From Escherichia coli (GTDB taxonomy: Bacteria; Pseudomonadota; Gammaproteobacteria; Enterobacterales; Enterobacteriaceae): a stretch of 64,000 nt of DNA. The stretch lies in NCBI RefSeq assembly GCF_041248615.1, contig NZ_CP158426.1; one strand, written 5' to 3'. How positions within the stretch are numbered: the stretch's first letter is position 1; each line of letters opens with the position of its first letter. This document shows, one piece after another, positions 18,001-21,000 of this stretch. Made by a program: the position numbers.

Positions 18001-21000
18001 AAAGGTGATTTTGACTTTATCAACAGTATTAGTGCCGTCAGATAAAATACAATCCTGCAAGTGAATGGTGACATCTACAGGCAGAGATTTCTGACCGCTT
18101 TTTAATACGGTATCAGCAACTTCACCGAGGTTTATTGTCTGATCTTCATCACCAGGAGCAATAGAACAAGGTGCATCGATAACTTCACCTTTAAAAGTAA
18201 TTTTACCGGAACCCTGATTAGCATCGTCAGCAAGAGCGTTAAAAGCAACGCCTGATAACAATGCGGTTGCGAACATAGATAACAATGTTTTTTTTAACAT
18301 GACTATAATCCTTTATAAATTAGAAAGGCTATGAATGAGGAAAATATAGGTTTGAATCTGATATTAATTCCGCTATGGAGATTACCATAGTTAGAGATGA
18401 CTTAGCTTGTTATTAATATTAAATACTGATTAAGTAAAACTTAAATCATACACTTTCATTATATATTAAGATGCGTATACCTGGATATTTGTTGTATATC
18501 GTTGTGAATAATAATTTTTTTGTATGAGTTGTGGTGAAAAAATGAACATCCATTGACAAAAATTTACGTATGATATTGTAAGGTGGTAAAGTATATTTAT
18601 TAAAACGAGTAGGGACGCAAGAATCGTGAAGATATAATATATATCTAGTGGTGCTTATTAAGTTTTATTATTAATTAGTAATGTTTTATCGGGGGATAAT
18701 ATATATTAATAGTCTTGGTTGTTCTTTTTTTAACCAGATATGGTATATAATACAACACTTACTATGATCGAAATCATATACTTGATCCAGAATTATGCGA
18801 GTATATGAATGTATTCAACGATGGATATGTGAAATTTTAACGCTAAATGTTTAGTAATGTTAAATTTTGAAGGTGAAAAGGATGTTTATTGCCTGGTACT
18901 GGATTGTATTAATTGTTCTACTGGCTGGTGGCTATTTTCTTCATCTTAAACGTTACTGTAAAGCTTTTCGCCATGACAGAGATGCGCTGTTAGCTGCCCG
19001 AAGTAAATTAGATAAACGCTCCGATAAAGAAGTGTTTGAAAAGCATCAATAATACCTTTAATAACGATACAGATGTTGCCTTTAGCAATGGGCAACATCT
19101 GTTATTATCGTCTTTAACCAATTCCCGCCGTTTGTAGCAGCACTAAACTAAATCCCATTACTGACATCCCACACAGCACGCCATAGCTGGGATTATTATT
19201 GGGATCAATCTCTTTGGCTAACGGCATTAATTCGTCCACGGAGAGCGCCACCATGATTCCTGCAACCGCCGCCATGATTGCCGCCATGACCACCGGGGAA
19301 ATCATGCTACCAAGGATTAACCACGCCAGCACGCCGCCGAGAATTTCCGCCAGCCCAGAAATCCCCGCCCACAGAATTGCGGTGCGTTTAGACCCCGTTG
19401 CCGCGTAAACCGGGCCTGCAACCGCCAGACCTTCAGGAATATTGTGTAACGCAACGGCCAGTGCGATGCCAAAGCCCAGCTCCAGGTTGCTGCTCGCAGT
19501 GACAAAGGTGGCAATCCCTTCCGGGAAGTTATGCAGACTGATGCCGAGAGTGAGCAGAATGGCTGTGCGCTTGATCGATTTTGGCAACGGCTGCACCGAT
19601 TTTTGCATTAAATCCTGCGGATGCGCATGCGGCAACATGCGGTCCAGACCAAAATAGCCCAGCAGACCAAAGATAAACATCCCGTAGCCCAGAACGGGGG
19701 ACATTCCTTCGGCGGCTAATGCGGCAGGGAGCATCTCCATCAATGAGATGAGCAACATGATCCCCGCCGCAAATCCTAGCGAAAACGCCAGTAAGCGGTT
19801 CGAGGGTTTTTGCCCGAGAACGCCGAGAAACGCGCCAATAAACGTGGCTGCCCCCGCCAGTATGGTCAGAATGAGAGGTACTGACATCGACAACTCCTTA
19901 TAAATCTTCACCTTCAGGCAGATCGTCAAAATAACTGATGATCATCATCATTGTTATCCGGGTTCTTACTCCGCCGAACAAGCGTATTGTGAGGATATCA
20001 AAATGACACCTTTAGTTAAGGATATCATCATGTCTTCAACACGTATGCCAGCATTGTTTTTAGGTCACGGTAGTCCGATGAACGTGCTGGAAGATAATTT
20101 GTATACCCGCAGCTGGCAGAAGTTGGGGATGACATTGCCACGCCCGCAAGCGATTGTGGTGGTTTCGGCTCATTGGTTTACCCGTGGAACAGGAGTGACC
20201 GCGATGGAGACGCCGCCCACGATTCATGATTTTGGTGGCTTCCCGCAGGCGCTGTACGACACCCATTATCCGGCTCCTGGATCACCGGCTTTGGCTCAGC
20301 GATTGGTTGAGCTGTTAGCGCCAGTGCCTGTCACACTGGATAAAGAAGCCTGGGGCTTTGACCACGGTTCCTGGGGTGTGCTGATTAAGATGTATCCTGA
20401 CGCCGATATTCCGATGGTGCAGTTGAGTATCGACAGTAGCAAACCTGCCGCCTGGCATTTCGAAATGGGGCGCAAACTGGCAGCGCTGCGGGATGAAGGA
20501 ATAATGTTGGTCGCCAGCGGTAACGTGGTGCACAACCTGCGTACGGTGAAGTGGCACGGTGATAGTTCACCGTATCCTTGGGCGATGTCGTTTAATGAGT
20601 ATGTGAAAGCGAATCTGACGTGGCAAGGGCCGGTAGAGCAGCATCCTCTGGTGAATTATCTCGACCATGAAGGTGGCGCGTTATCGAACCCAACGCCAGA
20701 GCACTATCTGCCGTTGTTGTATGTCTTAGGTGCGTGGGATGGGCAGGAGCCAATTACCATTCCGGTCGATGGTATAGAAATGGGCAGTTTAAGTATGTTG
20801 TCGGTGCAGATAGGCTAATAATTACCGGATGGCGAGTGCCATCCGGTATCATGGCTTATTCAACAAAAATATGTGGATAAAACCGAGACATATCCTGGGT
20901 GATCAATGCACGGTCTTCACGAATGCCAATTCCGGCAGGTTGATCGTTCACCAGCCAGCTACCAATCAGCATATAGCTGTCGCCGAATTTCGGTAACGGG

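Follow-up and report, generated by a model that had tools for sequence, protein, structure and literature searches.

The small open reading frame next to zupT in the stretch of Escherichia coli DNA analysed here (64,000 nucleotides, referred to as the window) is, with a probability of roughly 85%, yqiD, present as a minority allele of the gene annotated b4756 in K-12. We call this allele window-type. The gene is under purifying selection as a protein, and its product most likely serves a larger protein of the inner membrane as a small accessory or regulatory partner. The preliminary description had regarded the ORF as unassigned and had not recognised a named gene in it. That view has to be given up: the K-12 ortholog carries the name yqiD, RefSeq holds the exact CDS and UniRef labels the exact sequence DUF4051. 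yqiD is already known from the K-12 annotation, from experimental validation in 2018 and from the RefSeq CDS of the window-type allele.

The yqiD reading frame and its conservation

The coding region and its convergent neighbour contain the following features.

18882..19052, + strand: yqiD CDS, window-type allele, 56 codons plus TAA; protein MFIAWYWIVLIVLLAGGYFLHLKRYCKAFRHDRDALLAARSKLDKRSDKEVFEKHQ; RefSeq WP_001296421.1
18871..18875, + strand: Shine-Dalgarno-like AGGTG, 6 nt (AAAAGG) before the ATG
19114..19887, − strand: zupT, ZIP-family divalent metal importer; convergent neighbour, not part of yqiD

The frame from the ATG at 18882 to the TAA at 19050-19052 on the + strand encodes the 56-aa protein quoted in the preliminary description, which had placed this ORF at 18867-19052. 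Position 18867 is the TTG start of the mechanical ORF (18867..19052), which encodes 61 aa. The TTG start was rejected, as the frame 5′ of the ATG varies between genera; because the 5′ spacing shifts by 1-2 nt from genus to genus, only the ATG start is frame-conserved. The AGGTG reported as a Shine-Dalgarno-like site is present at 18871-18875, although 6 nt and not 5 nt before the ATG. The site reads AAGGGT in most relatives, and the purine-rich block is kept in the upstream alignment of Escherichia, Citrobacter and Salmonella. As for the neighbours that had been named, zupT is correct and ygiL only approximate: the product of the fimbrial gene at 17737-18300 has 59% identity to K-12 YgiL. The upstream neighbour of the window yqiD is a fimbrial operon, and that of the K-12 yqiD is ribB.

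K-12 yqiD (b4756, 171 nt, YP_009518818.1, YQID_ECOLI) is convergent with zupT as in the window. Homolog searches with the window protein or with a family profile retrieved K-12-type YqiD at E values of about 1e-16 to 1e-30. The two proteins align over 56 of 56 residues with 66% identity and no gaps, and residues 1-11 and 17-37 are nearly identical. They share the length of 56 aa, the N-terminal helix and the motif KRYC.AFR.DRDALL, and their genes share the upstream palindrome and the leader described below, whereas the C-terminal 16 residues are essentially unrelated. Between the two alleles dS is about 1.8 (saturated), in contrast to 0.29 for the neighbouring zupT. RefSeq gives the name yqiD to the K-12-type allele only, and the window-type CDS is left as 'hypothetical protein' because its divergence from the K-12 sequence is too great for it to be named. 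Annotation pipelines thus leave the gene without its name in ∼18% of complete E. coli genomes.

The label DUF4051 for the window protein comes only from the UniRef and NCBI source names of the exact sequence. UniRef gives the K-12 sequence as YQID_ECOLI, and the DUF4051 label is found on some members of the K-12 UniRef cluster too. The copy of Pfam-A used gave no DUF4051 match at E values up to 10 for the window protein, K-12 YqiD or Citrobacter homologs. Orf3334 of EAEC 042, which has been labelled as DUF4051 family (PMC5570504), may also be yqiD. Literature searches with yqiD, b4756, DUF4051 and the peptide string returned only the 2018 discovery paper and incidental mentions.

The length of the ORF is not significant, since 18% of 2000 dinucleotide shuffles of 18301-19113 contained an ATG ORF of 56 codons or more. 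The case for yqiD as a gene is therefore made by conservation. Using blastn, yqiD-like DNA was found in 5425 of 5426 complete E. coli genomes, in single copy and at one fixed locus. The window-type allele is carried by about 990 of them (∼18%), among them B2 strains, for example Nissle 1917, the type strain ATCC 11775 and isolates of ST131; the rest are K-12-type. Beyond E. coli, the gene is found in a defined set of Enterobacteriaceae, with members in the Escherichia/Salmonella/Citrobacter/Kosakonia/Phytobacter group, and is absent from Enterobacter and Cronobacter.

The preliminary description had taken the ORF for a real small-protein gene, and had proposed frame loss in relatives and ribosome footprints as checks. 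Both checks support the gene. The reading frame, of 51-74 codons, is uninterrupted at every one of the 40 species-level loci, which cover eight genera and reach up to about 70% protein divergence; S. enterica likewise retains it. The dN/dS ratio over codons 1-40 is 0.04-0.24, and differences fall mostly on the third codon position, those between the window and K-12 alleles at positions 1, 2 and 3 numbering 4, 5 and 20. For the K-12 allele, tetracycline ribosome profiling was positive, chromosomally tagged YqiD-SPA was seen by immunoblot, and the protein was detectable in ordinary rich-medium (LB) cultures (VanOrsdel 2018, PMC6001520). The window-type protein is probably synthesised too, as its conserved start and Shine-Dalgarno site and the purifying selection suggest.

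Upstream DNA and the hairpin between yqiD and zupT

Upstream of the Shine-Dalgarno site and downstream of the stop codon the following elements were found.

18763..18778, no strand assigned: operator-like palindrome TATGATCGAAATCATA, core ATGAT-N4-ATCAT, with GATC inside
18777-18782, + strand: TATACT, alternative candidate −10
18782..18809, + strand: candidate sigma-70 promoter, TTGATC (18782-18787), N16, TATGAA (18804-18809)
18835..18868, + strand: conserved block of the presumed 5′ leader TTTTAACGCTAAATGTTTAGTAATGTTAAATTTT, from the upstream alignment of genera
19064..19111, no strand assigned: hairpin between the yqiD and zupT stops, with perfect 12-nt arms at 19069-19080 and 19091-19102

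Escherichia, Citrobacter, Salmonella and Intestinirhabdus all share the palindrome core ATGATC(R)AAATCAT without change, whereas its flanks vary; the palindrome offers a handle on the regulation of yqiD. The leader block is present in the same four genera and absent from Kosakonia and Phytobacter. The pattern of the candidate promoter, TTGwTy-N16-TAT(G/A)AA, is kept across genera. A consensus promoter scan called no plus-strand promoter near yqiD, the candidate sigma-70 promoter included, and the yqiD region held no excess of promoter-like matches over shuffles.

The hairpin fills the 61 nt that separate the yqiD stop (19052) from the zupT stop (19114). As had been described, its 12-bp stem is perfect and is common to yqiD and the convergent zupT; beyond the 12-nt arms it has one G-U pair and a 5-bp outer extension. 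RNA folding gave −25.1 kcal/mol for the + strand (z = −6.7, matched by 0 of 200 shuffles) and −23.8 kcal/mol for the − strand, on the zupT side (z = −5.1). A simple consensus scan called no terminator here, because the U-tracts are interrupted (UUAUUAUCGUCUUU on the + strand). Of the terminator that yqiD had been credited with, the strong hairpin is borne out, and it would presumably act as a bidirectional intrinsic terminator. A stem with different arm sequences is found in K-12-type Escherichia and in some Citrobacter. With its conserved upstream region, its Shine-Dalgarno site, the ATG at 18882 and the hairpin that it shares with zupT, yqiD is an independent gene.

The strength of this hairpin on both strands, together with the frequency of equally long ORFs in shuffles, would also suit a reading in which the frame is incidental and the transcript or the hairpin is what matters, for example by insulating zupT from convergent read-through. 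This reading is effectively refuted. Many genera keep the ORF without a conserved hairpin, substitutions follow a protein-coding pattern, the frame outlasts extensive protein divergence, and the K-12 protein has been detected experimentally (PMC6001520).

Architecture of YqiD and related small-protein classes

The hydrophobic helix and charged tail noted in the preliminary description were both confirmed. The Kyte-Doolittle maximum for a 19-residue segment is 2.16, at residues 2-20 of the window YqiD. There is no charged residue in positions 1-22, and positions 23-56 hold 11 K+R against 6 D+E. AlphaFold2 returned a single helix over residues 3-55, with pLDDT of 85-89 in the membrane part and 56-65 in the cytoplasmic part. 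From its sequence, YqiD is predicted to be a 56-residue inner-membrane protein with a transmembrane helix at about residues 2-22. According to the positive-inside rule the N-terminus would be on the periplasmic side, and the last 34 residues would be cytoplasmic.

The transmembrane helix runs on into a strongly conserved juxtamembrane motif, [KR]-R-x-C-x-A-x-R-x-[DE]-R-[DE]-A (KRxCxAxRxDRDA), and then by a fast-evolving charged tail. Among 46 distinct family sequences, W5, A28 and R30 are invariant, I3, R24, R33 and A35 are kept at 98%, and C26 is found in 41. Residues 1-11 are invariant across Escherichia, Citrobacter and Salmonella. The window YqiD has the full family signature, that is the MFIAWYW N-terminus, one transmembrane helix and the juxtamembrane motif; its signature residues are M1, I3, W5, W7, K23, R24, C26, A28, R30, D32, R33, D34 and A35. 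The YqiD family can now be described: its signature is clear, its taxonomic range is defined and its tail-to-tail pairing with zupT is fixed.

Residues 23-44 have no significant hydrophobic moment (21% and 11% of shuffles reached the observed values), nor is conservation significantly concentrated on one face of the helix (69% of shuffles). Because the cytoplasmic helix is not significantly amphipathic and its conservation is not one-faced, there is no structural pointer to a particular binding mode. Searches with YqiD in Pfam, NCBIfam, PHROGs and PADLOC returned nothing above threshold, only noise of the kind that a hydrophobic helix produces. A family-profile search of PDB sequences gave E values of 0.03 at best, for unrelated UPF0335 proteins.

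These data bear on the reading that YqiD is a membrane-tethered adaptor, in which the cytoplasmic motif would recruit or sequester a soluble partner and the helix would serve mainly as an anchor. The most invariant stretch of the family is cytoplasmic (R24, A28, R30, R33 and A35 at 98-100%), and conservation wraps around the helix and forms no single stripe, as might be expected of an adaptor. However, residues 1-11, in the membrane or at its periplasmic interface, are invariant across Escherichia, Citrobacter and Salmonella as well, which is unusual for a mere anchor, and the Pfam, NCBIfam and PDB sequence searches yielded no domain or structure match. We consider the adaptor doubtful.

E. 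coli has a class of small inner-membrane proteins with regulatory or accessory roles, including AcrZ acting with AcrB, MgtS with MgtA, KdpF with KdpABC, CydX with CydAB and MgrB with PhoQ. YqiD is like this class in having fewer than 60 aa, one transmembrane helix, a short soluble tail and a stand-alone small gene, and its transmembrane segment is conserved, suggesting helix-helix contacts. YqiD differs from the class in that it has no sequence homology to its members and its gene shares no operon with that of a candidate partner. The resemblance to AcrZ/MgtS-type proteins may lie in the mode of action, and is not one of family membership.

The short hydrophobic helix followed by a charged C-terminus is also shared with type I toxins such as Hok, Ldr, Ibs, TisB and ShoB. 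YqiD could accordingly be imagined as a toxin-like, membrane-perturbing peptide that is normally repressed, possibly by antisense overlap with the zupT transcript; the 3′ ends of the two genes are convergent, and overlap in some genera, so that antisense RNA could arise. This is disfavoured and very unlikely. In contrast to type I toxins, yqiD is a core, syntenic gene in single copy at one locus, neither patchy nor multicopy, and the K-12 protein is expressed during normal growth (PMC6001520). No Rfam family, antitoxin sRNAs included, was detected in 18200-19300 at E values up to 1, and the phage and defence libraries (PHROGs, PADLOC) gave no match. Nor would a simple pore-former be expected to carry a conserved motif in the cytoplasm. 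The marks of a type I toxin-antitoxin pair, namely an antisense sRNA, tight repression and a multicopy or patchy distribution, are not seen for yqiD.

Candidate partners and the pairing with zupT

As an accessory or regulatory partner, and in the manner of other small membrane proteins of bacteria, YqiD would probably bind a larger protein of the inner membrane by way of its helix and juxtamembrane motif, which are unusually invariant, and binding would modulate the activity or stability of that protein. We give this mechanism, in its general form, about an even chance. ZupT is the leading candidate for the partner, tentatively proposed from conserved synteny only. In 39 of the 40 species-level loci, zupT is convergent just 3′ of yqiD, at about −15 to +70 nt; one of these 39 (L048, K. 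oryziphila) has only a zupT fragment. The upstream neighbour varies, being ribB, a fimbrial operon or assT-dsbL-dsbI. The pairing provides a concrete first hypothesis on the role of YqiD. No interaction data for YqiD were found in the literature searched.

In its specific form, this hypothesis makes YqiD a modulator dedicated to ZupT or to divalent-metal homeostasis, which would bind ZupT in the membrane and use its juxtamembrane Cys and His residues to sense or relay the metal status of the cytoplasm. Small-protein regulators of metal transporters are known, MgtS with MgtA and MntS with MntP being precedents. The tail-to-tail pairing has persisted despite repeated rearrangement of the other flank, and the boundary between membrane and cytoplasm shows an enrichment of Cys and His: among the 46 sequences, C26 occurs in 41, His21 in 30 and Cys20 in 22, and Kosakonia YqiD has Cys29 and His31. 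On the other hand, yqiD and zupT are convergent, form no operon and are not co-transcribed, and tight tail-to-tail linkage can last merely because there is no room for insertions. In Enterobacter and Cronobacter, zupT is directly convergent with ribB and there is no yqiD; therefore, ZupT does not need YqiD. Conversely, Pseudocitrobacter keeps yqiD with zupT and ygiD missing, K. oryziphila retains only the zupT fragment, and the motif of one family member (P0070) lacks Cys and His altogether. The ZupT modulator is possible, although we hold it to be improbable in this specific form.

A joint reading would connect the pairing with the two alleles. YqiD would be a lineage-restricted partner of ZupT or of metal homeostasis, in which the Cys/His cluster and the invariant helix (here R-x-x-x-A-x-R-x-x-R-x-A) tune the transporter, and the window-type and K-12-type alleles would be functional variants, either maintained over a long time or introgressed. 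We think this joint reading unlikely. If it were true, the divergence of the alleles in dS, in their C-terminal tails and in the upstream regulatory DNA would not be neutral drift.

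Identity and naming of the ORF

The preliminary description had treated the 56-residue ORF between ygiL and zupT as a gene without a recognised name. In K-12 MG1655, yqiD (b4756, 171 nt) adjoins the 3′ side of zupT in convergent orientation, the same place as that of the window ORF, and the exact CDS is already in RefSeq as WP_001296421.1, 'hypothetical protein'. The window ORF is an allele of the known gene yqiD, so the gene itself is not new. K-12 YqiD, MFIAWYWIVLIALVVVGYFLHLKRYCRAFRQDRDALLEARNKYLNSTREETAEKVE, has the same length as the window protein and 66% identity to it; residues 1–40 are nearly alike and the tail differs. 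In the UniRef exact-sequence look-up the window protein is a 'DUF4051 domain-containing protein' (A0A066SX81_ECOLX) and the K-12 protein is YQID_ECOLI, and some members of the K-12 YqiD cluster also carry the DUF4051 label. No match to a DUF4051 model was obtained in the Pfam copy searched, and that label was thus not reproduced. On homology, position and signature, the window ORF is classed as a member of the YqiD/DUF4051 family.

Features of the locus are as follows.

18763–18778: operator-like palindrome TATGATCGAAATCATA, core ATGAT-N4-ATCAT with a Dam GATC site inside
18782–18809 (+): conserved promoter-like pair TTGwTy-N16-TAT(G/A)AA, 3′ of the palindrome
18835–18868 (+): conserved leader block between the promoter-like pair and the Shine-Dalgarno site
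18871–18875 (+): Shine-Dalgarno-like AGGTG, 6 nt 5′ of the ATG
18882 (ATG) to 19050–19052 (TAA) (+): window-type yqiD ORF, 56 residues, the protein quoted in the preliminary description
19064–19111 (both strands): hairpin between the yqiD stop and the zupT stop (19114)

The identical strain, Nissle 1917 and an ST131 isolate all carry the WP_001296421.1 annotation, although among them the DNA farther upstream is only 83–91% identical. The PGAP name is 'yqiD: protein YqiD' for the K-12-type allele but 'hypothetical protein' for the window-type allele (including Nissle 1917, ST131 isolates, ATCC 11775 and MP1), a gap caused by allele divergence. What the analysis adds is this annotation gap, a description of the family and a hypothesis linked to zupT. 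No function of yqiD is assigned in the searchable literature.

Conservation and allelic divergence of yqiD

When the 813-nt intergenic stretch was shuffled with dinucleotides preserved, 18% of the shuffles held an ATG ORF of 56 codons or more, so ORF length alone is little evidence for a gene. The mechanical reading frame opens upstream of the ATG, at TTG 18867 (+). An incidental frame is nevertheless refuted by its conservation: the frame is intact, with 51–74 codons, in 40 of 40 species-level loci, and pairwise dN/dS over codons 1–40 is 0.04–0.24, with changes concentrated at third positions (window versus K-12 differences at codon positions 1/2/3, 4/5/20). Frameshifted database entries are rare, each on one or two contigs. 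VanOrsdel et al. (2018, PMC6001520) SPA-tagged the MG1655 ORF on the chromosome, at its 3′ end, saw the protein on immunoblots of rich-medium cultures and gave it the name YqiD; according to the same paper, K-12 YqiD was positive in a prior tetracycline ribosome-profiling screen. Because the frame is kept among relatives and ribosome profiling is positive in K-12, the earlier inference of a real small-protein gene holds. These results show that yqiD is an independently conserved small gene, translated in K-12 and under purifying selection.

By sensitive blastn, the 171-nt ORF was matched in 5425 of 5426 complete E. coli genomes. The window type (at least 95% identical by blastn) is present in 993 of the complete genomes and the K-12 type, with ∼80% identity in the first 108 nt and annotated 'yqiD', in ∼4430. 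The family was traced by an exhaustive profile search and a single scan of species-representative genomes, with a separate look-up for S. enterica, to Escherichia (coli, albertii, whittamii and cryptic clades), many Citrobacter species, Salmonella (arizonae, diarizonae), S. enterica, Intestinirhabdus, Kosakonia, Phytobacter, Pseudocitrobacter and one misnamed 'Enterobacter'.

Comparison of window 18882–19113 with the K-12 locus (L004, 3300–3552) revealed two deeply diverged yqiD alleles in E. coli. Between them dS is ∼1.8 (saturated) over yqiD codons 1–40, versus 0.29 in the adjacent zupT; identity is 48–58% over the C-tail and putative terminator, 88–92% over the 3′ half of zupT and ∼100% beyond. 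The database protein P0017 is a chimera with a window-type head and a K-12-type tail. The divergence and the chimera suggest that the alleles are old or were introgressed, and that they recombined within yqiD. A 30-codon ORF in a different frame (MLNFEGEKDVYCLV..., 18857–18949, +) overlaps the 5′ end of yqiD, and several database proteins (P0060, P0062 and P0074) are hybrids switching between the two frames, which most likely reflect frameshift errors or rare pseudogenes rather than a second product.

Protein architecture and possible partners

Among 46 distinct family sequences, M1, W5, A28 and R30 are invariant; I3, R24, R33 and A35 are conserved in 98%, and W7 in 91%, and C26 is present in 41 of the 46. 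Beyond about residue 41 the family is variable, yet hydrophilic. Residues 1–22 carry no charge (Kyte-Doolittle mean up to 2.16) and residues 23–56 contain 11 K+R versus 6 D+E; this difference predicts an N-terminus outside and a C-terminus in the cytoplasm. YqiD would then be an inner-membrane protein with a cytoplasmic tail. AlphaFold2 with the family alignment gave one unbroken helix over residues 3–55, with pLDDT 85–89 in the membrane part and 56–65 beyond. Neither amphipathicity nor restriction of conservation to one helical face was significant.

The invariance of membrane-embedded residues 1–11 and of the juxtamembrane motif exceeds the need of a simple anchor and so speaks for specific contacts. 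The mechanism with the best support, to which we give a probability of about one half, is that YqiD may bind and modulate a larger inner-membrane protein, a general mode of bacterial small membrane proteins. YqiD would resemble regulators of the AcrZ and MgtS type in this possible mode of action, not in family. It is improbable that YqiD serves instead as a membrane-tethered adaptor of a soluble partner. A toxin-like peptide is far less probable still, since yqiD is core and single-copy, its expression is detectable and no antisense RNA family was found at the locus.

For binding to a larger membrane protein, ZupT is the sole partner suggested by the genome itself, a tentative candidate that we consider rather unlikely. 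zupT lies on the strand opposite to yqiD and has its end about −15 to +70 nt from the yqiD stop in 39 of 40 loci, including Kosakonia oryziphila, where yqiD is intact and zupT is only a fragment. This link is limited on both sides. In Enterobacter sp. UCD-UG_FMILLET and Cronobacter turicensis, yqiD is lacking and zupT and ribB converge directly, at distances of 32 and 65 nt; in Pseudocitrobacter-type loci (L049, 3001–3156; L014, 3951–4112) yqiD is intact, zupT and ygiD are missing there and ygiC is directly next.

Flanking DNA

The hairpin has perfect 12-nt arms (19069–19080 and 19091–19102), extended by one G-U pair and a 5-bp outer helix, with folding energies of −25.1 kcal/mol on the + strand (z = −6.7) and −23.8 kcal/mol on the zupT strand (z = −5.1). 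A simple terminator scan made no call here because the U-tract is interrupted, so the hairpin is a putative terminator. Of the RBS and terminator initially ascribed to the ORF, the AGGTG and the perfect 12-bp stem shared with zupT were found as described, and the spacing to the ATG was corrected from 5 to 6 nt. Across yqiD loci, K-12-type Escherichia and some Citrobacter keep the hairpin with other sequences in its arms; many other genera lack it.

The palindrome core ATGATC(R)AAATCAT is invariant upstream of yqiD in Escherichia, Citrobacter, Salmonella and Intestinirhabdus, with varying flanks; in Kosakonia and Phytobacter the upstream region differs and conserves CTACTTATAAAGTGGTA instead. 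The half-site spacing is like that of FNR-type sites (TTGAT-N4-ATCAA), from which each half departs by one mismatch; this is a lead only. The divergent control region of the fimbrial operon and yqiD (18301–18881, 581 nt) has 27% G+C, the yqiD ORF 38% and the window 51%. Such A+T-rich DNA is usually bound by H-NS. In EAEC 042, deletion of aar, encoding an H-NS-binding protein, is reported to raise the transcript of 'Orf3334, DUF4051 family' (2017, PMC5570504), which is probably yqiD. A 2025 preprint (10.1101/2025.06.10.658842) lists yqiD as one of four genes whose upstream non-coding variants, promoter model and reporter fusions are concordant for an expression change between E. coli isolates.

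The upstream flank of yqiD varies: K-12, Kosakonia, Phytobacter and several Citrobacter have ribB directly upstream, window-type E. coli the fimbrial operon, and C. rodentium, C. amalonaticus and S. enterica assT-dsbL-dsbI. The ribB-yqiD gap looks like an insertion hotspot. The fimbrial operon (11283–18300; subunit, usher, chaperone, yqiI-like) is between yqiD and ribB in the window and on the other side of ribB-ubiK in K-12, and the major subunit shares only 59% identity with K-12 YgiL. The usher (flanks 13792–16104 and 17447–17650) is split by IS2 (16177–17450; insD-like 301-aa and insC-like 136-aa ORFs), leaving a 67-aa N-terminal fragment. In NZ_AP022087.1, whose yqiD-region DNA is identical to the window, the usher is intact (2523 nt). 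The K-12 usher likewise holds IS2, but after only 71 nt, and the two insertions are independent because their positions differ.
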